Positions 2,959 to 43,372 of a stretch of 64,000 nucleotides of DNA are shown here, piece by piece. Position 1 is the stretch's first letter. Each line of letters opens with the position of its first letter. The notes beneath the pieces are model-generated. The model was not told the origin of the DNA and did not search any database. It worked only from the letters and a program-made list of their open reading frames with translations. Origin of the DNA: an uncultured Candidatus Saccharibacteria bacterium (GTDB lineage: Bacteria > Patescibacteriota > Saccharimonadia > Saccharimonadales > JAGQNJ01); the NCBI GenBank assembly GCA_964590205.1, contig CAZPVO010000003.1, positions 67,643 through 131,642 of the forward strand. Direction: 5' to 3'. A program made the position numbers and the translations under genes.

Positions 2959-3483
2959 CTACTTAGCAAGTGCTTTGATGACGATTACAATGATCGCAAG
3001 CAGAGCTAACACACCGAAGGCAACAAAAATTATGCCAATCAGTTTTTTATGACCGCCACCTCCGCCAGAATGCTGTGAAGCATCAGGAATATTAGCAAGT
3101 GATGGTGTTTCTAGGGGATTTGCCCCAGTAGCTGGCGTTGGTGACATGCCAGAATTAGGTGGTAATGGCTGCGATTGAGTATCCATATTTGGCATAGGCG
3201 CAGGTGGTTGCTGGTCTGGAAATGCAGAAGCTGGCGGCATTTGCGGCATTGGTTGCTGTGGCATTGGCGGTTGCTGAGCCCCTGCCAACATTGGATCACC
3301 ACCAAGCGTGTCTACTGGCGGACTTTGAGCTGGAAAAGCTGGATTGGGTGGTAGCGGTGATGGTGCAGGTTGTGATGGCAATGGATCAGGCATTGGTGGA
3401 ATTGCTGGTGGCATTGGATTCGACGGCAACGGCTCTGGCGCTGGTGGCACAGGCGGTTGATTTTGTGGCTGCATTGGGTCCAT
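2959..3483 (-). CDS. Pro-rich tail-anchored membrane protein (hypothetical)
   Basis: 174 aa starting MDPMQPQNQPPVPPAPEP. About 140 aa are Pro/Gln/Met-rich and low-complexity, followed by a single C-terminal TM helix (LIGIIFVAFGVLALLAIIVIVI). Confidence 0.5.
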   Translation of the reverse strand: MDPMQPQNQPPVPPAPEPLPSNPMPPAIPPMPDPLPSQPAPSPLPPNPAFPAQSPPVDTLGGDPMLAGAQQPPMPQQPMPQMPPASAFPDQQPPAPMPNMDTQSQPLPPNSGMSPTPATGANPLETPSLANIPDASQHSGGGGGHKKLIGIIFVAFGVLALLAIIVIVIKALAK

Positions 3484-31552: not shown

Positions 31553-34500
31553 CTATTGTTGAACTTGGTAGTTCATGATCACATCTGTTGAGGCTGGTGT
31601 TTCAAAGTAGATCGTGAAGTCTTTATCAGTGCTATCGACACGGTAGCGAGGCGCAAACGTATCCTTAGGCGTTAGTATGACAACTGGTTCACTACCCAGG
31701 TCGTATGGTTTCACGAAGGTAAACTTGAGCTGCGTCTGACCAGCTGGGATTGTCAGCGTTCCCCTAGTATCGGTATTGCCAAGCAAATGTCCCTGGATGG
31801 TAATGTTGCCGGCGAAGGTGGCGTTACCAGTAACTGTTAGTTGAGCTATTGTGGCCGCTCCAGTCACAGTCAGGTTGTGTACTGTCGCAGTACCTGAGAC
31901 ATTAAGGCTCGCGAAGTTGGTGTTGCCTTGGTTATTCTCAAGCGCACTCACACGTTGGCTCAAATCACTTATCTGTCCAGTAAGGTTACTAACACTGTTA
32001 TTTGAAGTTGTTTGCCCCTGCTGTAAGCCAGTTATTTGCAGGTCTTGCGTCTGAGCGGCACCAACCAGATAAGGGATGATTGCCTGGTAGTTGGCGACAT
32101 AGTAGCCGTTACTGTCTTGGGAAACAGCTTGAGGGAGTATTTGCATAAGCTCTTGGGCGATGAAGCCTTCTTGGTTCTTCTGTGTTGGATCATCATTCCA
32201 GGTAAAGTTCACACCTCGAAGCTGCTTAATAACATCGAGGCCATTGGCGATAGTTACTACATTACCCTTGAGCCGAGCGTCAGATGAACAGGCGAACTGA
32301 GTACCGGCGCCTGGGCTAATAGTACAAGTCTCGGCACCGGCGTTATTAAATTGCGCTACAGCACTACCACTGGTAGCTGCATTGGTAAAGGCAAAGACAT
32401 TTGAAGCATTAACACCCAAGGTAACATTGCCGTTATTAGCAGCATTTCGCCAGGCGATGTTGTTATTATTTTGAAGTCGCACTGCGCCTGCATCAGCACG
32501 ACTACTCCCTACCCCTAAGTATACCCCTGCGACCCACGCCCCGCCAGTTGAGGAAATGCCGCTAGCATTTGTCGTAATATTTCCGGCACTACTGATAGAA
32601 AAGTCAGTACCGACCGCAAAGGCATCATCGGTTTTAAGAGTATCAGCTGCACTGCGATATAGGTTGGTATCTCGTGATGAACCAAATGCCAGACCAGCAG
32701 CGGCACTTGTATTATCTGCGTCACTACCAACCCAAAGAGTTTGAGTCCGAGCCGTGCCAATTGCAATACCATAGTTTGTTCCGCTACCACTGTTAGACGC
32801 TCCAACCTTTATTCCATAATTAGTCGCGCCTGAGGTTAGGCCATCAATGTTAATGCCGTAGTTGTTGGTAACCACGGGTGCGCCATCAATAGTAGGGGCG
32901 TCGAGCTGAATACCATATATGTTAGACACTGTCAGACCCGAGCATAAGCCACTACATCCACCACTACCGCTGAGAGAAACTGTATTATGGAAGCCATACA
33001 TATTGGTTGTGGTGCTACCACTTATACCGAGGTTAGATACATTATTGCTAAATCCTGTATATGAAGCCATCGTGCCACTGCCCCCAATACTGCCTCCGAC
33101 ACCATAGCCATAGGCGTTGTCGGCAGTGGTAAGTGACATTGCAGCATAATAATTATAAGCGTTGCTTGTGCCCGCACCAGCATTGTCAGCTGAAACGTTC
33201 GAATAGACACCATACGTATTTGCGGTGCCACCAGTAGCACCTGTACGCGTAACATTTATCACTTGACCAAACGTTGTATCTGTACCGCTTGTCGTTACAC
33301 CAGTATTGTTTACAGTAGTCACTTGTCCTTGCAGCGATCCGGCAGTAGCACTTGCACTACTCTGAGTCACGTTCAACGGTGCTAAGCCAGACTTATTACC
33401 ATCACCTCCAAAAGATGAACTACCTTGCGCTGATAGACCTTGTCCAAACGATGCAGCACCCTGCACACTCAGATCACCGGCATCAGTAATGGTACCTTCG
33501 GTATAAAGTTGAGAGGCAGCAATACCACCGGCCGATAGCTGTTGGATATATGCTCCCCCCATATCGTAGATGCGCAAGTTACCATTTGCGTTCATATACG
33601 CATAGCGTCCAGCAACTTGTATGGTCTGAATAGCATTGCCGACGTTTGCGTTTGAAAGCACCGAAAAGGCATTGCTCGGTACGGTAACATCATAAACCGA
33701 GAAGCTTGTAGCAGCCGTGTTGCCGCCAAGATAGGCATAGTTACCTTGGACCCATATGGCCTGGTTTGTTGCACTACCGGTTGTGACGCTCTTAGTTAAG
33801 GTTGGCGCTGTCGGGTCACTAACATTTATAATTTCGAATTTACCACTGCTCTCACCAAGGTACGCATAGCTTCCTTTTACGAATATTGCATTCACGGCTG
33901 CGCCGATACCAGTGCCGGTTGTGCCATTGGTACCTGAAGAATTGATGAACCCGGTCGTAGTAACAGAGTAAGGATTAGAGATATCTGCGATGTATAGGTT
34001 AGTAGTTGTAGAGGTGTAATATATATATTTACCTTGGCCAAATATTTCACCATTACCGGATGCTACAGGTGTCCAGGTGCTCGTAACAGATGGAGATATT
34101 GGATTCGAAACATCCATTATTCTTACAACGCCACTACCCGTACTTATATAGGCATAGTGCCCTTGAACCCATATGCCGTTTGATGTTGCACCCCCATGAG
34201 CCGTTGTCGATACAATACTTGGCGACTTCGGATTACTAATATCAATGATCTGTAGGCTTGTAGAGGTGGCTACATAGGCATACTTACCTACCACTTGAAT
34301 CGATGTGGCAGTCCCAGTTAGCGCAGTAGAACCCAAATTAACCGGATTAGCTGGGTCAGAAATATCTTGTGGGACCAAAAAGGCACTCGTTATCGAATAG
34401 GCATAATTACCTTGAACCCATGTATCAATAGTACTCGCGAATGCAACCGAACCAATTTGCTGCGGGGCTGCCGCAAAGCTATTCTTAAATGTTGCGCCAG

Positions 34501-37500
34501 TACTGACATGCAGATCACCATCAATATTCACATTTCTATCGAAGTTTGCGCTACCTTGCACATCAAGTGACCCAACAATATGCGTGTTGCCGGCGGTAAG
34601 ACTGCCTCCAATACTGCCGGAAGGATCAGAACCCGAAGCATCCGACAAAGCTTGATTGCTCAGGCCAACCAGATCAAGCGAACCACCAACCAGTACACGG
34701 GCTGTGCTCGCGTAATAAATATTACTATATACAGTGCCCGATGATGCGTTAGCAGACGCACCGCCAAGACTATAGATATAGCCGTTGTCGGCTACACTTG
34801 CCTGACCAAGCAATGACTGAGGTAATGTATAGCTGGACGTCTGGAAAGTTCCCAGGGTTCCATCACCGTTAAGTTTGGCGTAGTAGATAGTGTTATTTGT
34901 GTTAGTTGAACCAGTGGTACTACCGCCAATAACATATACATACCCATTAACAAAGGCGCCCGAATGGTACTGACGGTTAGCAGGAAGTGTTGGTGTGCTT
35001 AGGGTTTGGACGTTACTGTTAGCACCAGTTAATGGATCAAGTGTCGTAGTAATAATGGTATTGTTTGCCCCACCACCAATAATGTAGGCCGTGTTATTGG
35101 CTACAACTACTGTGGCATTAGCGCGTCCGCCAACTGTCGTACCAGTATTCCACGCCGTAGCACTTGAACCATTGCCACCAAGACTACCGTCAGAGTTAAC
35201 CTTTGCGTAAAATAGGGCACCGGCACCTCCCGATGCAGAATAAATATAGCCATTAGCCGTAAAGACAACATGGCCAGACTTGGCAGTCAAACCACTAGTG
35301 TTGCCGCTTTGCCAGGCACCTGTCGAACCATCAGAGTTAATTTTTGCATAATAAACAGTCGTTTGGTTCGATCCGTTATTTGCAGCATGACCACTGACGA
35401 CATACATAAAACCGTTAACCACAACTGGATTGCCGAACTCTCCTCGCGCTGCTGGCAGTGACTGGGAAGCAGTTGTCCATGAGCCAGTTGAGCCATCAGC
35501 ATTAATTTTTGCATAGTACACAGCGGTTGTTGCGGCTGAGCCATTAGCAGTTGCAGTGAATCCGCCTACTGAATAGACATAGCCATTGTAGACAACTGAG
35601 CCATTACCATAAACGCTGGCTGGCAAGCTGTTGTTGTTCTTTTCCCATGGGCCAGTTTCACCGGTATTCTGGTTATTGAGTGTAATATGGTTCTGGAAAG
35701 CACCTACTTGTAGGTTTTGAGCGGGAGCTGTGTACGTAAGCCCTGTCGCTCCTGAGACAATCGTTACCCCATCAACAAAAATGTTTCGAGCAGTAGCGTC
35801 GCTTTGCTTAATATATGCACCTGCTACCGTCGTACCATTAGCGCCAGCAACAAGAGTAGAACATGTGAACAGCGTCCAGGTTGTGTTAAGGGTTTGGCCG
35901 GTAAGACAGTTAATGTCAGATCCATTGCTAGTGAGGCCTATCTGTGCCGTTGTCATGCTGCCGCTGTCGACACGAGCATAGAAGCTTACGCTGTAGGTGC
36001 CACCGGCTGGAAAGGCCAGGTTAAAGGTGGCTCCATCGTTGGCTGCTGCGGTGGTGGCAATCTTAAGAGATCGACTCCCGAAGTTGGATAAGCTGTCGTC
36101 ATCGGTAATGGTAGCGCTACCCTTGGCGGTAACAAGTGAAGTATTTTGTTCAAAGTTCGGGTTTCCAAACAGGTTCAGGCCACTCGTCAGCGTATTTATC
36201 TTCAAGATGTCTGCTCCAGAAGCATTATCTACCCTGAAAGCTGAAGTTGAATTTGCAGCGTTTTGGAACAAGGCCGAACCGTTATTGCCGCTGATGGTCA
36301 CTACCGTACTCTGGGCGTTCTGCGTACTACCAGTAGAGCCAGCCGCTGCAATCTTAATATTCACATCGCCACCATTACCGGTACCCGTGCCAACCCCGCC
36401 ATTTAGATTCAGTGCACCGCCAGTTGTATTAGAAAGACCACTGGCTGCATTGCCTCCTTGTACGCTAAGCGCTGCAGCTGTAACGCCTGCACTCGAACTG
36501 CCAGTTGCATTTAGCGTAAAGGCAGCTGGTGTTGCTGATGTAACACCGTTACCAAAGTAACCCGATGTTGCAGTACTGGAAGCAGCTTGTCCTAGCTGGA
36601 CAACTAACTGGTTAGCAGCTGTCGAGGCTGCTGATGCACCGAGTACTACGGTGTCGCTAAAGGCAGACGAAGCACTACCCCCCAAAATAACGTTTCTATT
36701 TACCGTACCACTGGCTGCCGCACTGGACCCGAGGATGACGCAGGTTGCACAGTTGCCACCACTAGCACTTGTGCCAATAATGACGTTACCCGCCGAAGAA
36801 CTGCCGGTTGCGCTAGTACCAATTACGACTGCGTTGCCACTTGGTGAAGTGGCACTATTTCCAATTACTACAGTGTTGTTACCGGCTGCTGTGGCGCCTG
36901 AACCAAAGCGTTCACTGCTACTACCTGCACCAGGACAGCTTAGGCTTCCATTAGTTCCACTAATCGTACAAGCTGTTGCCAAACTGTTTACCGAGGTGCC
37001 TGATGTACCTGCCGCAGAGTATTGAAAGATAATGTTACCACCCGCAACATTACCTGTACTCTGGCCACCGGCCAATATTAAGTCACCTCCTGCTGTGTTG
37101 CTTGTACCAGTTGTTGAGCTACCGGCTTGCAACTGAATAGCAGTACCTGCTCTACCGGCAGTGTTACTACCTTCGCCTGTAAGCGTAAACGAAGATGGAT
37201 TAAGTGCACCAGCTGTTGCCAGACCAAAGTACGCAGTATTACTGGTATCAAAAACCAGCCGGGTTATATTATTTGTTTTAATTGCCAGCGTATTGTTATC
37301 GAGCGTACCGAGTACTCCCGGCGTACTTGCCCCAAGCGTATTGCCACCTTGCGCCCAGTAAGTACCACTTGCCTGGTAGCCTGAGCAGACCGAACCAGTC
37401 GTACAAATTGTGCCGCTTTCATCTGGTAGCGTAAATGTTCTGCTTGCCGTAAAAGTATTGGCACCGAGTATCGATCCAATAAAGCCATTGCCAGCTGTAC

Positions 37501-40500
37501 TATCGTGAAAAGCCAAAATCCCTTTAATTGGTGTCGTATCGTTGCCAAGTGCTACACCAGGTACTATCCCGCTCGTAACAATAGTGAGAAGAGAAGCTCC
37601 ATCAGACCGTTTAACAGCAAACGCTGAAGCAGAGTCGACACTGTTTTGGAAAGTGGTCGCACCGCCAACTGCAATGGTTGCTTGGGTTACATTGTTAGTT
37701 TCAAACTTGAAGTTGTTGCTGTCGTTAGTACCAAGAATTACATCTGAACCGAAGCTATTACCGTTATTAAGAATGTCGCCTGTCCCACCAATTCCGGCAC
37801 AGTTACCACTGGTCAAACAAACCGTACCCGAAGCATTTGGCAAAGAAATAGCATACGTGCTTGAGCCTGGGTTAGATGCCGATAGACTAATCGAACCTGA
37901 GCCGCCTGAGTTATAGAATGTTAAGCTGCCGGTTGCACCTGAGGCTCGTCCAAAATAGAAGTTTCCACTTGCCGTAACACCAGAGACTGCATTGCCGCTA
38001 CTGTCTTGGAATTGCAACAAATCAGCCGTCTGGCTTGATTTAGCTTTTATAAGACCAGTGATGCTGCCAGTGGCAGAGCTTTGAACTGCAAAGTTTGCAT
38101 TGCTCTGAACAGTTGTCGAGTTATTAATGTAATTACCAGAGCCGCTCGACGATGCAAAACCACAATTGGTTGAGTTTTGTATACAAATTGTGCCGCTTTC
38201 GTCAGGCAGATTAATTGTTCGTGCACCGGTTGCAGCTACCACGCTTAGCGTTGTCGTATTAGAGTTTGAGCTATTATTGAAAACAAGCGTACCAGAGCTA
38301 GAAGATGCTTGGCCAAGTAAAACTGAGCCATTAGAGGTATTGGCAGTCAGAATGTTATCACCGAGCGACGTGAGGATCCTGAAGCCGGCCGATGAGTTAG
38401 TGCTATTCTGGAAGGTTGTAGCTCCCCCATTTGCGATGGTGACTTGTGTATTATTCCCTGTAATAAATTGTAGACTGTTTGCATCTGTTGTTCCGAGCTT
38501 GGCAGTTGCACTAAACGCATTTCCATTTTGAGTAAAGTAATTGCCGCTTGCTTGGTAGCCACTACAAACTGAACCAGTTGTACAAACAGTTCCATTTTCG
38601 GCAGGTAGTGTAATCGTATATGCAGTCGGCCCTGGATTTGCAGCATTGAGGGTTATTGAGCCAGCACCCGCGGCATTGTATAACAACAAACTACCCGATG
38701 TAGAACTTGCAGTACCTAATACTGCAGTGCCCGTTGGCACTGTCAACGTACTACCAACTATAAAGTTGCCATCTGTTTTTAGCGTGGCTGCTGCTGAACG
38801 ATATAAGTTTGTATCACGAGAAAGTCCGAATCCTATGCCAGCCGCAGCCGTCGTATTATCAGCATCACTCGAGAGCCAAAGGGTCTGAGTATCAGCAGTA
38901 CCGACTGCTATACCGTAGTCGACCGTTCCAGCCGTTTGCGGCTGTACATTAATACCAAAGTTAGTGCCAATGGTGCCGCCGCCACTATTAACTGCAGATA
39001 ATACGAGTTGACCAGCGGCATTGGTGATCGTACCTGATGAGGTATTACTAACAAGTGTGCCAAGACCTATTGCGCTTGTTACAGTACCACTAGCATTGTT
39101 ATCACTCAGAGCAAGCATTCCAAATTCAGAAGTAACAGAGCCAGCGCCGTTATTTCTTGCCCAACCTGACGTACCAATAACTGTACTGACCGCCCCCGTC
39201 GTGCTCACATTAGTTGTTCCAGCAGTTGAGGTATATACCCCTGAGTAGTTGATTCCTGATCCGGTCAAACCTAAACTACCATCCAAAGCTGTCGAAAAAA
39301 CCGTCGAATCAGAAGGAGGGCTTAGCGTAATCCAATCTTGGATACCTGTTACCGCACCACTAGTATTTGAATAGCTTTCCTTGGTTTGCACCAACACATT
39401 AGGACTAATAGAGGCATTGCCACCGACTGCAAGCTGACTGCCAACCGTAAGGTCATTATTAACATTTACATCACCCGATGAAGTCACAGTCAGTCTTGTG
39501 ATGTTATGAGTCTCGAAATTTAAATCATAGTTATCGTTTGTACCGATAGTAATAGCTGAGCCAAAAGCGTTACCACCATTGTTGATGTCACCGCTACCGC
39601 CACTACCATTACAGTTATTGGCGGTTGTGCAAATATCATACGTACCAGAACCTGCTGCCGTCGCAAATTTGTATGTTGTTGTTCCACCTGCCCCATCAGC
39701 TAACTTAAAGTAAATGTTTCCGTCTGTTCCAGTGAGACCACCTATTCCACTGCCCGCCGTACCAGCCTGGAACGTAATATTGCCCCCAGCACCATTGGTT
39801 GAGCCATTTGGTGCGTCACCGCCATTCCCGGCCTGCAAGCTGATAGACGAACCCGCACCACCGATTTGCCCGGTTCCTCCAACTGTATTGCCACCTTTAG
39901 CCCCCAGTACATTAAGAACTGGATCGGCATCTGTCCCGTCAGATCCCGAGTCATTTGGTGATGAACTATTAACTGTAAGCGTTGCTGAAGGAGTCCCCGC
40001 ACCAATAATTACCCTTTTATCAGTTGTATCGACAGTCAGAACATTAGACCCAGCAGTATTTTTAACCTGAAAGGCTGTACTACTATTGGTTGTTGGCGCC
40101 AATGTGAAGCGGTCAGTTATGATATCTCGAACATACTCGGTGCCGTAATAGGCTGTTGGCGAACCGATATTAGAACCAGTTACGGTGTCAGAAGCCGAAC
40201 CAAGGTTAGCAAAGCGTAGTCTTTGGTTGGATGCATCGTAGTAAGCCAACTGGGCGTAACCATCAGGGCCTATTGCAGCAGAAACATACTGACCAACATT
40301 CGCCGAACTGTCGACTGTTGAAATAGTTGGGTTGGCACAGGTTTTGTCATCACAAGAAGCAAATTTTAGAGTGTTAGGAGTAGTATCATAATATGCGATT
40401 TGTGGCACACCTTTGGCATTCAGCACAATACTTGTGGCTTGAGCATCGGAAGTGTTATCAACCGTTTGGGTCGTCTTGGATGAGCAAGCCGCATTAAGAC

Positions 40501-42430
40501 AGTTAATGTAGGTTAGGCGGCCTACGCCAGAACTCTGATAAGCAATGTGTGCCAAGTTGGCGTTATCAAGAACAATTGTGTTCCAGTCGCCAGACCCGCT
40601 CGCCGCATCAACCGTAGTTGTATTGCTTGTGGTACAGTTAGCATTCGTACATTGTACATACTGAAGCCCTCCTGGTTGCAAATGATAGGTTAGTCTTGCT
40701 GTATTATCAGAAGCTAAAGCTATCCCTGGTGCACCTGTATTATTACCACCGCTATTATTAATAACGGTAGAAACCGACGTGGAACAATCAGTTGCTGTAC
40801 ATCGAACAAACGTAAATGAAGTGTTTGCGCCGTTAAATAGAAACATCCGTGCCATTCCATCCGTGCCAACGGCAATTCTTGCCGAACGTTGAGTTAGATT
40901 ATTTGCCCCGCTCATAACTACTACTGGTGTAGTAGTAGTGCTACAGTCGGAATTACAACGTAAAAACTTAAACTGATCATTCAGCGAATCGTAGTAAACA
41001 ATGTGGATGTTATTGCTACTATCAAGTGCTGCTGAGGCATGCGAACCAATACTGCCTGTCGATTGAAGTGTCCGTTGTGTAATACTTGAACAAAGTGTGT
41101 CGTTACACTTGGTAAAGCCAAGATCTGCCGCTGTCGGTTTGAAGCTTATAATCCTGGCCAAGCCACTACTGTCAAGCAATATTGTGTCGTGCTGACCGTC
41201 ACGAACTGCAGATAGCGTAGTATTGTAAAAAGTGGTGGTAAGGTTCCCTGCTGTCAGAGGCACTAGCGAAGCTGTATTAACCGTACCCGTAGTTGTATTT
41301 ACGGTTAGTAAATTTACTCCTGCTGCATTTTGAACAGCAAATGCCTGGTTTGAGTTGGCTGCATTCTTAAAAGTTACTGCGCCACCAACTGCAAAAGTAG
41401 CCGCTGTTTGTCCATTGGTTCGAATCTGCAACGGATTACTGTCATTTGTTCCTAGAACTGCCGTTGCACCGTATTTGTTACCGCCTTGTAGAAAAGCCGT
41501 TGTCGAAATTTGAATGTTGACAGTATTACCACTTTGATTGGTGGTAAGAGTAATACCTGTTCCTTGTAGCAATTTAATAACTTGGGAGTTATCACCTGTA
41601 CCAAATGTCAGAGATACATCGCCTACTTGGCCGTTAATAGAACTAACGCTATCTTCTTGTGTTGTACTTGTAGCAACTTGGCTTTGGATCGGTACTGAGT
41701 TGCTTGATGCACAATTGTCTGAACTTAAACATATTTCGCCCGAGCTATTTGGCAAAGTATAGACTTGATCAGATGTTAACGCACTGGCGTCAAACTGTCC
41801 AAATACGGTGCCATTGGCTGTACCAATAAACAGCGAGCCCCGTGCAACAACGTCACCATTCACAATTAATTTATTTTTGCCGCCTTTAGACTGTAGAACT
41901 GATAAAACGTTCCCTGTATCTTCACCTAGAGTCAAACTTTGTTCATTCACCGAGCTAGATGGTGATTTAAGCTGACCGATGTTGCGGCGCGATATAAACC
42001 CTGTGACACCGACTAACGCAATTACAATCAGCATCGCCACACCGGTTATGATGTAAACAGCTTTATTGCGGCCAAGTCTTCGTGGGAATAACGGTGTTTT
42101 GGGTTCTGCAGCTGGAGTCTGAGCCGGCTGCGTAGCAGTAGATGCTCCCGAATTAGGGTCACCTAACGGAGGTGATGCTACCGGGTTGGATGTGACAACA
42201 GATTCACTTGGGGCTGATTCTAAAGAGTTAGCATCCGGAACAATTGGCGGTTCATAGCTGTTTGTTGCTGTTTGAGATGGAGGTGGTGTTACTGGTTGAG
42301 AAACTGATTGTGTACTAACGGATGCAGCAGCAGTTGGAGTTGAGGCACCTTGATACGAGGCCCCTTCCCCCTGCTGGGTAGGAGTAAAAACTGTGTTCGC
42401 AACTGGGGTATTTTTATCTTCGTTTTGCAT
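31553..42430 (-). CDS. giant (3625 aa) N-terminally membrane-anchored surface fibre/adhesin with Kelch and LVIVD propellers, a CBM4_9-like domain, tail-fibre-like repeats and a C-terminal Peptidase_S74 intramolecular chaperone domain
   Basis: Single uninterrupted ORF. aa 1-123 are S/T/P/A-rich, aa 124-146 form a TM helix, and the rest is G/S/T/N/A-rich with multiple internal repeat families (domain map in findings). All plus-strand ORFs inside are antisense artefacts. Confidence 0.9.
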   Translation of the reverse strand: MQNEDKNTPVANTVFTPTQQGEGASYQGASTPTAAASVSTQSVSQPVTPPPSQTATNSYEPPIVPDANSLESAPSESVVTSNPVASPPLGDPNSGASTATQPAQTPAAEPKTPLFPRRLGRNKAVYIITGVAMLIVIALVGVTGFISRRNIGQLKSPSSSVNEQSLTLGEDTGNVLSVLQSKGGKNKLIVNGDVVARGSLFIGTANGTVFGQFDASALTSDQVYTLPNSSGEICLSSDNCASSNSVPIQSQVATSTTQEDSVSSINGQVGDVSLTFGTGDNSQVIKLLQGTGITLTTNQSGNTVNIQISTTAFLQGGNKYGATAVLGTNDSNPLQIRTNGQTAATFAVGGAVTFKNAANSNQAFAVQNAAGVNLLTVNTTTGTVNTASLVPLTAGNLTTTFYNTTLSAVRDGQHDTILLDSSGLARIISFKPTAADLGFTKCNDTLCSSITQRTLQSTGSIGSHASAALDSSNNIHIVYYDSLNDQFKFLRCNSDCSTTTTPVVVMSGANNLTQRSARIAVGTDGMARMFLFNGANTSFTFVRCTATDCSTSVSTVINNSGGNNTGAPGIALASDNTARLTYHLQPGGLQYVQCTNANCTTSNTTTVDAASGSGDWNTIVLDNANLAHIAYQSSGVGRLTYINCLNAACSSKTTQTVDNTSDAQATSIVLNAKGVPQIAYYDTTPNTLKFASCDDKTCANPTISTVDSSANVGQYVSAAIGPDGYAQLAYYDASNQRLRFANLGSASDTVTGSNIGSPTAYYGTEYVRDIITDRFTLAPTTNSSTAFQVKNTAGSNVLTVDTTDKRVIIGAGTPSATLTVNSSSPNDSGSDGTDADPVLNVLGAKGGNTVGGTGQIGGAGSSISLQAGNGGDAPNGSTNGAGGNITFQAGTAGSGIGGLTGTDGNIYFKLADGAGGTTTYKFATAAGSGTYDICTTANNCNGSGGSGDINNGGNAFGSAITIGTNDNYDLNFETHNITRLTVTSSGDVNVNNDLTVGSQLAVGGNASISPNVLVQTKESYSNTSGAVTGIQDWITLSPPSDSTVFSTALDGSLGLTGSGINYSGVYTSTAGTTNVSTTGAVSTVIGTSGWARNNGAGSVTSEFGMLALSDNNASGTVTSAIGLGTLVSNTSSGTITNAAGQLVLSAVNSGGGTIGTNFGINVQPQTAGTVDYGIAVGTADTQTLWLSSDADNTTAAAGIGFGLSRDTNLYRSAAATLKTDGNFIVGSTLTVPTGTAVLGTASSTSGSLLLYNAAGAGSITLNAANPGPTAYTITLPAENGTVCTTGSVCSGYQASGNYFTQNGNAFSATAKLGTTDANSLQFITGNNTQVTIANGGATTFQNSTNSSAGFRILTSLGDNILTANTSNGSVLLGQASSSSGTLVFNNSSNSNTTTLSVVAATGARTINLPDESGTICIQNSTNCGFASSSGSGNYINNSTTVQSNANFAVQSSATGSITGLIKAKSSQTADLLQFQDSSGNAVSGVTASGNFYFGRASGATGSLTFYNSGGSGSISLSASNPGSSTYAISLPNASGTVCLTSGNCAGIGGTGDILNNGNSFGSDVILGTNDSNNFKFETNNVTQATIAVGGATTFQNSVDSASAFAVKRSDGASLLTIVTSGIVPGVALGNDTTPIKGILAFHDSTAGNGFIGSILGANTFTASRTFTLPDESGTICTTGSVCSGYQASGTYWAQGGNTLGASTPGVLGTLDNNTLAIKTNNITRLVFDTSNTAYFGLATAGALNPSSFTLTGEGSNTAGRAGTAIQLQAGSSTTGTSNTAGGDLILAGGQSTGNVAGGNIIFQYSAAGTSGTSVNSLATACTISGTNGSLSCPGAGSSSERFGSGATAAGNNTVVIGNSATSPSGNAVVIGTSATGSSSAGNVIIGTSASGGNCATCVILGSSAAASGTVNRNVILGGSASSAFSDTVVLGASAASTAANQLVVQLGQAASSTATSGYFGNGVTSATPAAFTLNATGSSSAGVTAAALSVQGGNAASGLSNTTGGALNLNGGVGTGTGNGGDVNIKIAAAGSTGSTQNAQSTVVTISGNNGSALFQNAANSTSAFRVDNASGADILKINTLTSGLNLFGNPNFEQNTSLVTAKGSATITDDDSLSNFGSRSLKIATTAAANDGATFNLAFPAGGTYSVSFYARVDSGSMTTAQIGLTSNGSDINCLTGQTLNTTWTLFTCSTLVAGANGTTVAGAYIKQSDATARNIFVDGVTIVSGATGLTYTAPAQNLQVGAFQNHITLNNQNTGETGPWEKNNNSLPASVYGNGSVVYNGYVYSVGGFTATANGSAATTAVYYAKINADGSTGSWTTASQSLPAARGEFGNPVVVNGFMYVVSGHAANNGSNQTTVYYAKINSDGSTGAWQSGNTSGLTAKSGHVVFTANGYIYSASGGAGALFYAKVNSDGSLGGNGSSATAWNTGTTVGGRANATVVVANNTAYIIGGGANNTIITTTLDPLTGANSNVQTLSTPTLPANRQYHSGAFVNGYVYVIGGSTTGSTNTNNTIYYAKLNGDGTLGTFQTSSYTLPQSLLGQASVADNGYIYSLGGASANASSGTVYSNIYYASTARVLVGGSLDLVGLSNQALSDASGSDPSGSIGGSLTAGNTHIVGSLDVQGSANFDRNVNIDGDLHVSTGATFKNSFAAAPQQIGSVAFASTIDTWVQGNYAYSITSAFLVPQDISDPANPVNLGSTALTGTATSIQVVGKYAYVATSTSLQIIDISNPKSPSIVSTTAHGGATSNGIWVQGHYAYISTGSGVVRIMDVSNPISPSVTSTWTPVASGNGEIFGQGKYIYYTSTTTNLYIADISNPYSVTTTGFINSSGTNGTTGTGIGAAVNAIFVKGSYAYLGESSGKFEIINVSDPTAPTLTKSVTTGSATNQAIWVQGNYAYLGGNTAATSFSVYDVTVPSNAFSVLSNANVGNAIQTIQVAGRYAYMNANGNLRIYDMGGAYIQQLSAGGIAASQLYTEGTITDAGDLSVQGAASFGQGLSAQGSSSFGGDGNKSGLAPLNVTQSSASATAGSLQGQVTTVNNTGVTTSGTDTTFGQVINVTRTGATGGTANTYGVYSNVSADNAGAGTSNAYNYYAAMSLTTADNAYGYGVGGSIGGSGTMASYTGFSNNVSNLGISGSTTTNMYGFHNTVSLSGSGGCSGLCSGLTVSNIYGIQLDAPTIDGAPVVTNNYGINIDGLTSGATNYGIKVGASNSGSGTNYGIAIGTARTQTLWVGSDADNTSAAAGLAFGSSRDTNLYRSAADTLKTDDAFAVGTDFSISSAGNITTNASGISSTGGAWVAGVYLGVGSSRADAGAVRLQNNNNIAWRNAANNGNVTLGVNASNVFAFTNAATSGSAVAQFNNAGAETCTISPGAGTQFACSSDARLKGNVVTIANGLDVIKQLRGVNFTWNDDPTQKNQEGFIAQELMQILPQAVSQDSNGYYVANYQAIIPYLVGAAQTQDLQITGLQQGQTTSNNSVSNLTGQISDLSQRVSALENNQGNTNFASLNVSGTATVHNLTVTGAATIAQLTVTGNATFAGNITIQGHLLGNTDTRGTLTIPAGQTQLKFTFVKPYDLGSEPVVILTPKDTFAPRYRVDSTDKDFTIYFETPASTDVIMNYQVQQ

Positions 42431-42535: not shown

Positions 42536-43372
42536 CTAAATCCACAAAATGATATAAATCGAACCTAGCCCAAAGAGTAAAACAATAAACGCCAGCCACG
42601 ATACTTGAAACAACTGCTTGAACAATGCTGTTCGAGCCAATGGATTACGTCCAACAGAGATAATCGAGCTATGAATAGCTCCATAAATAATCGATCCTTC
42701 CACAATAAGCAGCAAGAAAAAGATCACTAAAGCTACGATTACTTGAGCTTGGGTAACGGTTTTTCCGGTTATGGACTGCCCGAAAAGTACCAAATAAGGT
42801 TTTTGCTCGGCAGCGTCAAGACTTCGGTCGTGCGGATCGACATTGATCTTAACTTTGTTGATTAGAACTGTTCGTTCACTACCTTCTTTTGTGCTGACCT
42901 TCTGCGTAATCGCTTTATCTTTGTTAAAATCTTCTAATGCTGCCCCTACTACTTGGGTATCACTGTCAGCTGCCTTCATGCCTATTCCAGTCAGGGGTGA
43001 AACCACAATATAGTCACCCTGTTTGATGTCGCCATTCAGATCTGATACATACACGTCAGCATCACCCGAGGTCGTAACGTAAACTTGAGCATTAGAATTA
43101 CTCAAAGTTATCAAACTGGAATCAATCGTTGTGACAATTCCAACAACTTTACCCTTGTTACCATTGTTTGCTCGCTCAACAAGTTCGTTGCCATCTGAAC
43201 TATTTTTTGTTTGTGAAGCAATCATATTTATCTTCAGACTCGTATCTGTAGTGCTGTAGCCTTTTGAAATGCTAACAGCGAGCGCAGATGCAGCCGGTAG
43301 TAAAACCAATAAGCAAGCTACGGCTGCAGACAGTCGTAGATACCATTTAACAGATGACAAATTCTTGGCCAT
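42536..43372 (-). CDS. hypothetical secreted/membrane protein (signal peptide, beta-rich ectodomain, 2 C-terminal TM helices)
   Basis: 278 aa. N-terminal signal-like LRLSAAVACLLVLLPAASALA, and C-terminal VIVALVIFFLLLIVEGSIIYGAI / WLAFIVLLFGLGSIYIILWI. Lies directly upstream of the giant gene, co-directional. Confidence 0.5.
   Translation of the reverse strand: MAKNLSSVKWYLRLSAAVACLLVLLPAASALAVSISKGYSTTDTSLKINMIASQTKNSSDGNELVERANNGNKGKVVGIVTTIDSSLITLSNSNAQVYVTTSGDADVYVSDLNGDIKQGDYIVVSPLTGIGMKAADSDTQVVGAALEDFNKDKAITQKVSTKEGSERTVLINKVKINVDPHDRSLDAAEQKPYLVLFGQSITGKTVTQAQVIVALVIFFLLLIVEGSIIYGAIHSSIISVGRNPLARTALFKQLFQVSWLAFIVLLFGLGSIYIILWI

Follow-up and report, generated by a model that had tools for sequence, protein, structure and literature searches.

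The window analysed here, a stretch of 64,000 nucleotides (nt) of contig CAZPVO010000003.1 from an uncultured Candidatus Saccharibacteria bacterium, carries on its minus strand a single unbroken open reading frame (ORF; window positions 31553-42430) that encodes a giant protein of 3,625 amino acids (aa). The exact sequence of this protein forms a singleton protein cluster, its contig being 137,927 bp long. A sequence-only reading of the DNA had proposed that the giant protein contains a trio of glycan-binding-like modules, namely a jelly-roll carbohydrate-binding module (CBM) resembling CBM4_9, a six-bladed Kelch propeller and a seven-repeat LVIVD propeller, and 15 out of 15 peptide motifs quoted in it are found in the 3,625-aa ORF where it had placed them. 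The trio comprises aa 2087-2958, which corresponds exactly to nt 33557-36172. The giant gene displays the following features, listed from the ORF as a whole through the successive elements of the protein:

31553..42430, minus strand: giant ORF, uninterrupted (3,625 aa), encoding a predicted modular surface fibre protein with a membrane anchor
41993..42061, minus strand: predicted transmembrane anchor, aa 124-146 (AVYIITGVAMLIVIALVGVTGFI), one hydrophobic helix read from the sequence
35744..36172, minus strand: CBM_4_9-type beta-sandwich, aa 2087-2229 (PF02018, family profile and AlphaFold2 model)
35663..35743, minus strand: flexible linker between the CBM and Kelch modules, aa 2230-2256 (predicted local distance difference test score, pLDDT, below 50 at model residues 151-174)
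34703..35662, minus strand: six-bladed Kelch beta-propeller, aa 2257-2576, with a degenerate blade 4 (family alignment, profile and model)
34463..34702, minus strand: post-Kelch stalk, aa 2577-2656 (LDLVG...GGSLTAGN..VG.L.V.G.A.F), conserved among homologues
33557..34462, minus strand: seven-bladed LVIVD beta-propeller, aa 2657-2958 (PF08309, AlphaFold2 model and family profile)
32123..32284, minus strand: Peptidase_S74 intramolecular chaperone with an SSDARLK motif, aa 3383-3436 (PF13884, 52.9-57.3 bits against a cut-off of 22)
31556..31870, minus strand: C-terminal domain of about 105 aa, aa 3521-3625, recurring at or near the C-termini of four other proteins (P0036, P0076, P0071 and P0109)

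From its N-terminus to its C-terminus, the giant protein consists of the anchor, about 1,900 aa of repetitive fibre, the trio, about 420 aa of further fibre, the S74 domain and the C-terminal domain. The sequence-only reading had likened the trio to a receptor-binding tip; it lies instead within the chain, spanning 58-82% of its length, with the last three of these elements still to follow. The 120 aa at the N-terminus, ahead of the hydrophobic helix, are of low complexity and rich in Pro, Ser, Thr and Ala, and the topology we infer has the N-terminus inside the cell and the remainder outside. The protein is probably extracellular, a location that fits the arrangement of its 34 Cys residues, all of which sit as 17 close pairs. 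Pfam searches of the remaining ~2,700 aa, in eight segments, returned nothing except S74. Since its modules are the only parts of the protein that match Pfam bar S74, the trio comprises the best annotated ligand-binding candidates, which partly supports the putative role in ligand or host-surface recognition that had been proposed for it.

The S74 region matches phrog_33119 (long tail fibre distal subunit), and its SSDARLK motif aligns with the SSDRRIK of 6f45, a solved phage long-tail-fibre protein, both conforming to SSDxRxK. By analogy with other members of the family, the presence of S74 would imply a trimeric fibre from which the chaperone is cut off at Ser3383. As for the C-terminal domain, Pfam gave no match for aa 3521-3625; the four proteins that share this domain contain Kelch, CBM or collagen modules, and it would be released together with the chaperone if S74 cleavage occurs.

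The isolated CBM domain matched PF02018 (CBM_4_9) with 33.0 bits (E=9e-8), and the same family was matched with 26.3 bits when a fragment of the protein was searched, the cut-off being 25.9 bits; CBM_4_9 was not reported in the whole-protein Pfam scan. The module carries NPNFEQN at aa 2090-2096 and NIFVDGVTIV at aa 2216-2225, the two motifs from which a CBM4_9-like module had originally been recognized. All 18 copies of the CBM family (18/18; the window copy and its homologues) matched PF02018, with a best E-value of 3e-16. These copies align across about 146 columns and have in common an invariant N..FE start, two invariant Cys residues (C2175 and C2190 in the window CBM) and a terminal D(G)V motif. 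When compared to the PDB, the family profile retrieved the CBM22 modules 4xup (8e-12) and 1dyo (5e-9), the CBM16 module 2zex (1.6e-10) and the CBM4 modules 1gui and 1k42, with alignments covering ~130-140 residues, that is, most of the module, and nearly its full length in the case of 2zex. The AlphaFold2 model is all-beta over aa ~2099-2226, with ten strands and a pLDDT of ~90.

The number of Kelch blades was established from a family alignment. Homologous propellers were delimited by cutting at the conserved segment that follows each of them, which yielded 22 Kelch homologue units and hence a profile of 23 propellers, and the six blades of the window are in perfect register with all 22. The mean identity between blades is 33%, and blades 1 and 2 share a 52-nt DNA repeat at a spacing of 165 nt, which is the length of one blade. 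Pfam recognized blades 1, 4, 5 and 6 weakly and blades 2 and 3 not at all when blades were submitted singly; over the whole region, PF24681 scored 42.7 bits (E=5e-11), under its cut-off of 50, and Kelch_6 passed its cut-off of 25.3 with 26.0 bits. The profile matched the PDB entries of SAKe6 (1e-34), KLHL2 (1e-19) and Keap1 (1e-16). The structural model, whose pLDDT is 80-95 except in blade 4, where it falls to 52-84, was superimposed by Foldseek on the six-bladed propellers of LZTR1, KLHL12 and NS1-BP, with target-normalised template modelling (TM) scores of 0.75-0.81, and all 50 PDB matches listed for a joint model of the CBM and Kelch modules are Kelch-type propellers.

The invariant positions of the Kelch alignment are the residues of N-G-Y..Y..GG and of YYAKLN.DG..G.W, and the variable ones lie in the loops past the GG pair and ahead of the first strand. 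The YYAK(I/L/V)N.DG..G.W motif had been regarded as a linker that precedes each blade. It forms instead strands C and D of the blade, and the full motif occurs only in blades 1, 2, 3 (as FYAKVN) and 5; blade 4 has a degenerate version of it (IITTTLDPLTGANSNVQTL) and blade 6 a truncated one (YYAS). To judge by the sequence motif and the strand pattern, the fourth (D) strand that blade 6 lacks seems to come from the N-terminal segment ETGPWEKNNNSLP (GPWEK), which would thereby close the propeller.

For the LVIVD propeller, a fragment scan with PF08309 gave an E-value of 7e-34 (115 bits) over six stretches. Taken as single units, repeats 1, 2, 3 and 5 pass the Pfam threshold, 4 and 6 are weak and 7 is undetected; the mean pairwise identity among units is 32%, and the consensus of a 63-sequence alignment consists of seven repeats. 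The AlphaFold2 model of aa 2640-2980 (pLDDT 87.7, predicted TM score 0.86) shows seven four-stranded blades, with 27 listed strands of at least three residues plus short ones, in agreement with the seven repeats counted beforehand, and the N-terminal strand QIGSVAF probably completes blade 7. Foldseek placed this model on seven-bladed WD40 propellers, including that of beta-TrCP, with TM scores of 0.72-0.74. Among solved structures, the family profile has a single strong relative, the seven-bladed Sb-PTE (5hrm, 5e-15), the match being confined to the L.ivDis.P..P repeat motif of an enzyme that carries large insertions; searching the PDB with the window LVIVD domain as a single sequence gave no match. 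Altogether, Pfam and profile searches and structure prediction recovered all three of the folds proposed in the sequence-only reading, and not the lack of propellers and jelly roll that would contradict it, and we regard the fold assignments of the three modules as very nearly certain.

The 80 aa that separate the Kelch and LVIVD propellers (aa 2577-2656), left without annotation in the earlier reading, constitute a conserved stalk module. This stalk had no significant match in Pfam or the PDB, and as a monomer it yields a low-confidence model. It follows the Kelch propeller in 39 of the first 120 homologues. A profile search of 1.84 billion cluster representatives found it in 1,854 proteins at E<=1e-3 and in 550 at E<=1e-10, many of which are 2,000-6,400 aa long and contain up to eight full stalk copies.

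To describe how the modules are combined, we mapped them with hidden Markov models built in this analysis. Cassettes of the CBM-Kelch-stalk type, often in tandem, are present in at least 14 homologues, and the order Kelch-stalk-LVIVD is found in two of the mapped proteins (P0027 and P0071). Among 137 further representatives, CBM and Kelch modules occur together in 15, Kelch and LVIVD modules in 8, and all three kinds, in various orders, in 4; one protein of 3,089 aa (P0366) has the same CBM-Kelch-stalk-LVIVD order as the window. In related Saccharibacteria, giant proteins pair LVIVD with FG-GAP repeats and four CBMs, or with a right-handed beta-helix. Since these arrangements recur across homologues, the trio is one arrangement of interchangeable parts and not a fixed unit: its modules are stock cassettes, freely shuffled among similar giant proteins.

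Several observations were made alongside this mapping. Certain other long proteins contain 20-36 occurrences of the C-terminal half of the stalk (GN..VG.L.V.G.A.F), as a generic fibre repeat. S74 also terminates seven of the 137 newly fetched representatives (P0373, P0413, P0428, P0440, P0417, P0394 and P0477). In one related locus (L001, 243-5024 and 5390-14035), adjacent genes encode a 1,593-aa protein made entirely of Kelch repeats and a 2,881-aa protein in which 12 FG-GAP repeats are accompanied by four CBM_4_9 modules and an LVIVD propeller; in another (L002, 4079-11764), a 2,561-aa protein combines a right-handed beta-helix with LVIVD.

The residues that are conserved in the modules are of a structural kind. 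In the Kelch propeller and the stalk, invariant or near-invariant positions are occupied exclusively by N, G, Y, W, D, A, K, L, P, T and V, and the Kelch alignment has no conserved Glu or Arg beyond its repeat motif. The 63-sequence LVIVD alignment has no invariant column; start Met aside, only Y, A and P come near to invariance, and no metal-ligand-type residues (His, Asp or Glu) such as those of Sb-PTE are conserved among these sequences. Of the 302 residues of the window LVIVD domain, 2 are His and 3 are Glu, and His is absent from the CBM. This pattern suggests that the modules of the trio are non-catalytic.

The host is a member of the Saccharimonadales, part of the candidate phyla radiation (CPR), and the locus is chromosomal and not part of a phage. 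The isoleucyl-tRNA synthetase (IleRS) of the window is 71-78% identical to proteins from Ca. Saccharibacteria/Saccharimonadales metagenome-assembled genomes, and homologues of the trio are labelled Saccharimonadales, Saccharibacteria or Patescibacteria. The neighbouring genes encode ParA, ParB, signal peptidase I, LytR, HtrA, IleRS, class II ribonucleotide reductase (RNR), FtsZ, SecA, aminoacyl-tRNA synthetases, PriA and IF-2. In a relative whose IleRS is 76% identical (L008, 12910-15483), the block FtsZ-NrdR-RNR-IleRS-L21 ... ParA-ParB-signal peptidase-LytR-HtrA is kept, with no giant gene in the syntenic slot that separates IleRS/L21 from ParA; in a second relative (P0247), a large gene begins in the same slot and is cut by the end of the contig. 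The slot being empty in one relative and filled in the other, the giant gene is a variable accessory insert, and its absence from the first is as expected of a variable surface determinant.

A prophage origin, which would make the giant protein a virion component, was rejected in view of these housekeeping neighbours and of flanks that are syntenic with relatives. A tblastn search of the trio against 50,697 phage genomes gave no match; the phage matches of the C-terminal part are limited to its S74 region (340 phage records). At the level of the fold, Kelch propellers and a CenC-like CBM are present in proteins of phages, among them 'virion structural proteins' from jumbo phages. Because the trio has no sequence relative in those 50,697 genomes, any analogy with phage proteins rests on folds. 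Targeting by a diversity-generating retroelement was likewise rejected: a direct-repeat search of the whole window revealed no pair of template and variable repeats, and returned only the blade-to-blade repeat described above and an unrelated acidic-tract repeat.

The interpretation that we propose is that the giant protein is an adhesive cell-surface fibre, a proposal that we hold to be evenly balanced between right and wrong. One N-terminal helix would hold the protein in the cell membrane and so position the trio in the fibre's outer half. The trio consists of three independently folding modules, predicted to be extracellular, the CBM being connected to the Kelch propeller via the flexible linker and the Kelch propeller to the LVIVD propeller via the conserved stalk. 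The fibre would be long and probably trimeric, and the modules would form lateral adhesive knobs on it. The partner of the CBM would be a polysaccharide, probably a glycan from the cell wall or capsule of a host bacterium or of a neighbouring one, and the propellers would expose the variable loops of their top faces to additional surface ligands, whether glycans or proteins. With three CBMs and six propellers in each trimer, binding would benefit from avidity.

Several points weigh against this interpretation. The ligands of the three modules are putative throughout, and one module out of three, the CBM, belongs to a carbohydrate-binding family. Even there, the window CBM has, at aa ~2102, a Leu where a Trp stands in 17 of the 18 family copies, and it may be inactive or altered through this substitution. 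Blade 4 of the Kelch propeller is degenerate and was modelled at lower confidence. The trio is internal to the giant protein and not terminal. The S74 domain is the sole element that points to trimerisation, the stalk having given a poor model as a monomer. The trio has neither a relative in the phage genomes searched nor a close orthologue in the collections examined: GTDB representatives are 23-37% identical, at the level of modules only, and JGI metagenome proteins 23-30%. Finally, the epibiont lifestyle of this organism is assumed from its lineage.

The nature of the ligand is where the first alternative departs from the adhesive fibre as set out above. The propellers may bind a protein or peptide exposed on a partner cell, in the manner of eukaryotic Kelch and WD40 propellers, so that only the CBM would touch carbohydrate; we consider this possible, though somewhat unlikely. 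The nearest solved structures do bind peptides or proteins (LZTR1, KLHDC2, KLHL12 and Keap1 for the Kelch propeller, beta-TrCP and Fbw7 for the LVIVD propeller) and, to our knowledge, neither Kelch nor LVIVD is a CAZy carbohydrate-binding family. The description of the trio as glycan-binding-like applies to the CBM, and does not extend to the two propellers, which have no established glycan preference. Likeness of propeller fold, however, says little about the ligand, the physical linkage of the CBM and Kelch modules in one cassette suggests a common, polysaccharide-rich target, and a propeller of the phi11 receptor-binding protein has been proposed to bind N-acetylglucosamine (GlcNAc; PMC4901313).

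Alternatively, the modules may be structural and have no specific external ligand, the length, stiffness or lateral packing of an envelope fibre or S-layer-like coat being determined by them as rigid nodes or spacers. Their bead-like character, with many copies and orders in proteins of 2,000-6,400 aa, is in keeping with such a role, as are the repetitive, low-complexity fibre devoid of Pfam matches that makes up the rest of the protein and the absence of the conserved Trp from the window CBM. Yet the CBM_4_9 modules studied so far are, as far as is known, all ligand-binding (see also PMC11406892), and the presence of the gene varies among close relatives, as would be expected of an interaction determinant more than of a core envelope scaffold. 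We find a purely structural role doubtful.

It is less plausible still that the fibre captures environmental polysaccharide, from plants, algae or a biofilm matrix, for nutrient scavenging or biofilm anchoring. The solved CBMs nearest to that of the window (CBM22, CBM16 and CBM4) bind polymers of the xylan, mannan/glucan and laminarin types, going by the source enzymes of the PDB matches, and homologues come from soil, sediment and groundwater metagenomes. On the other hand, neither the giant protein nor the 64-kb window contains a glycoside hydrolase or sugar-uptake gene, and the Saccharibacteria in cultivation live attached to host bacteria (PMC10633639, PMC11665869).

That at least one module is an enzyme, the Kelch propeller being a sialic-acid mutarotase or galactose-oxidase-like and the LVIVD propeller an Sb-PTE-like metal-dependent hydrolase, is highly improbable: the label 'N-acetylneuraminic acid mutarotase' borne by many homologues in JGI is a generic COG name, NanM is not among the best 60 of the 98 PDB matches of the Kelch profile, the family alignments, leaving the repeat motif aside, have no conserved His, Cys, Glu or Arg, and Sb-PTE, although no solved structure is closer in sequence to the LVIVD family, is matched in that motif only, the few His and Glu of the window domain and its failure to retrieve any PDB relative by itself pointing the same way.

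A bolder extension of the adhesive-fibre interpretation is that the protein acts as a host-range determinant of an epibiotic Saccharibacterium: an anchored, S74-matured trimeric fibre, following the design of a phage receptor-binding protein, would carry swappable CBM-Kelch-stalk and LVIVD cassettes that read the wall glycans of particular host bacteria, and strains that gain, lose or reshuffle cassettes would thereby be redirected to new hosts. We put this forward as speculation that is rather unlikely to hold. How CPR/Patescibacteria recognize and hold their host cells is an open question, with no receptor-ligand pair known; type IV pili and a few 'adhesins' have been genetically implicated in host attachment (PMC10633639, PMC12206443). 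Our literature search found no publication joining Saccharibacteria and LVIVD, and Saccharibacteria and Kelch were co-mentioned in an unrelated context only. What we report is a domain annotation, and a correct one, that assigns known families to a hitherto uncharacterised surface protein; it introduces no new mechanism. The trio is a well-delimited fragment, with three confidently modelled modules of about 140, 320 and 300 aa, and since the same cassettes occur in many giant proteins, with the stalk in 1,854 representatives, a result obtained on one of them would transfer widely.

Further features of the giant protein and of the window lie outside this argument. At aa ~420-740 (window 40211-41171, minus strand) are six repeats of ~50 aa, each ending in a C-x3/4-C pair (442/447, 492/496, 544/549, 594/599, 644/649 and 693/698), with the pattern ...IAYYD....LKF..C....C; Pfam gave no match for them, and they look like a further propeller-like repeat domain. 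Two near-alike segments of ~75 aa, at aa ~1161-1235 and ~3209-3283 (window 38726-38950 and 32582-32806, minus strand), lie ~2,050 aa apart and share the pattern YGIA.GTA.TQTLW..SDADNT.AAAG..FG.SRDTNLYRSAA.TLKTD. This pair is a duplicated fibre element, whose second copy is located ~100 aa ahead of the S74 chaperone. The G+C content is 47-49% within the giant gene (window 32001-40000) vs 42-46% across most other parts of the window, which probably reflects a composition rich in Gly, Ala, Thr and Ser rather than a foreign origin. A plus-strand ORF that overlaps the trio (35997-36560) was dismissed in view of the strong protein-level conservation on the minus strand.

Directly upstream of the giant gene, a 278-aa ORF (window 42536-43372, minus strand), for which Pfam gave no match, may be a conserved partner of it; a gene of 278 aa also precedes the truncated large gene of the second relative. 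Giant genes of this class often end contigs, as in P0001 and P0027, and are therefore under-represented in assemblies. ARAGORN detected no tRNA or tmRNA gene in the 64-kb window, nearly all of whose genes are on the minus strand, with a cumulative GC skew that falls steadily, consistent with a position on one replichore arm.

Among known systems, the receptor-binding protein of phage phi11 provides a parallel in architecture. The sequence-only reading had presented propellers and CBMs embedded in a fibre as the classic way in which receptor-binding tips are built; propellers are in fact described as rare in receptor-binding proteins, with two other examples besides the endosialidases (PMC4901313). 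In phi11, a Staphylococcus phage, they form a mid-fibre platform that is thought to bind the GlcNAc of wall teichoic acid (PMC4901313). Like the giant protein, this phi11 protein (Gp45) is an elongated multidomain fibre whose propellers sit in the middle and not at the extreme tip; they make few inter-subunit contacts, and the target cell is Gram-positive (PMC4901313). Unlike it, Gp45 is phage-borne, 636 aa long and equipped with five-bladed propellers that are neither Kelch nor LVIVD (PMC4901313), whereas the giant protein, with 3,625 aa, is chromosomal, predicted to be membrane-anchored and presumably trimeric, carries six- and seven-bladed propellers and has no sequence similarity to Gp45.

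The endosialidase tailspikes of coliphages K1F and phi92, as cited in PMC4901313 and PMC3357383, have a propeller attached to a stalk and end in an S74 chaperone, which is cleaved off and by which trimer folding is driven. The giant protein likewise carries a propeller, a stalk and an S74 domain with SSDxRxK. In endosialidases, however, the propeller is the catalytic sialidase, whereas the propellers of the giant protein lack conserved catalytic residues; the giant protein has ~190 aa after the S74 core, including the extra, recurrent C-terminal domain, and it begins with a predicted membrane anchor where they have a virion-attachment domain. A resemblance in the CBM is provided by the Bacillus cereus myophages Vp4 and Deep-Blue, in which several CBMs are strung along large adsorption proteins, one of which, Vp4 Gp119, was found experimentally to bind cells (PMC11406892). 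The window CBM family and these tail proteins share matches to CBMs of the PDB (1DYO, 1H6X, 4XUP (CBM22) and 2ZEY/2ZEW (CBM16); PMC11406892). The Vp4 and Deep-Blue proteins differ in being baseplate or spike components of phages, in having no propellers and in showing no detectable sequence similarity to the window.

Closer in lineage, the cultivated Saccharibacterium Southlakia epibionticum possesses essential envelope proteins with polysaccharide-binding domains, which have been proposed to target host glycans for adhesion or degradation (PMC10633639); they include SEML1_0891 (VCBS), SEML1_0315 (dockerin) and SEML1_0890 (FN3) (PMC10633639). The phylum and the lifestyle context are the same, as is the principle of surface proteins with domains of a glycan-binding type, in a comparison made by domain families and with a role that is a proposal there too; the families themselves differ, VCBS, dockerin and FN3 facing CBM_4_9, Kelch and LVIVD.

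At the level of single propellers, Sb-PTE of Sphingobium sp. TCM1 (PDB 5hrm and 5ioj) is a seven-bladed propeller (Mabanglo et al. 2016, as cited in PMC11656708), as is the LVIVD module that its sequence resembles in the profile comparison (E=5e-15). Sb-PTE is nevertheless an enzyme, whose metal centre is binuclear and whose sequence carries large insertions, whereas the window LVIVD has very few potential metal ligands. The Kelch module shares with six-bladed Kelch propellers (KLHL2/3/12, Keap1, LZTR1, KLHDC2 and the designed SAKe6) the succession of a hydrophobic strand, a GG pair and then Y and W. While the eukaryotic representatives are intracellular substrate adaptors, the window Kelch is a bacterial module, predicted to be extracellular, with a YYAKLN.DG..G.W signature of its own and a dedicated stalk after it.

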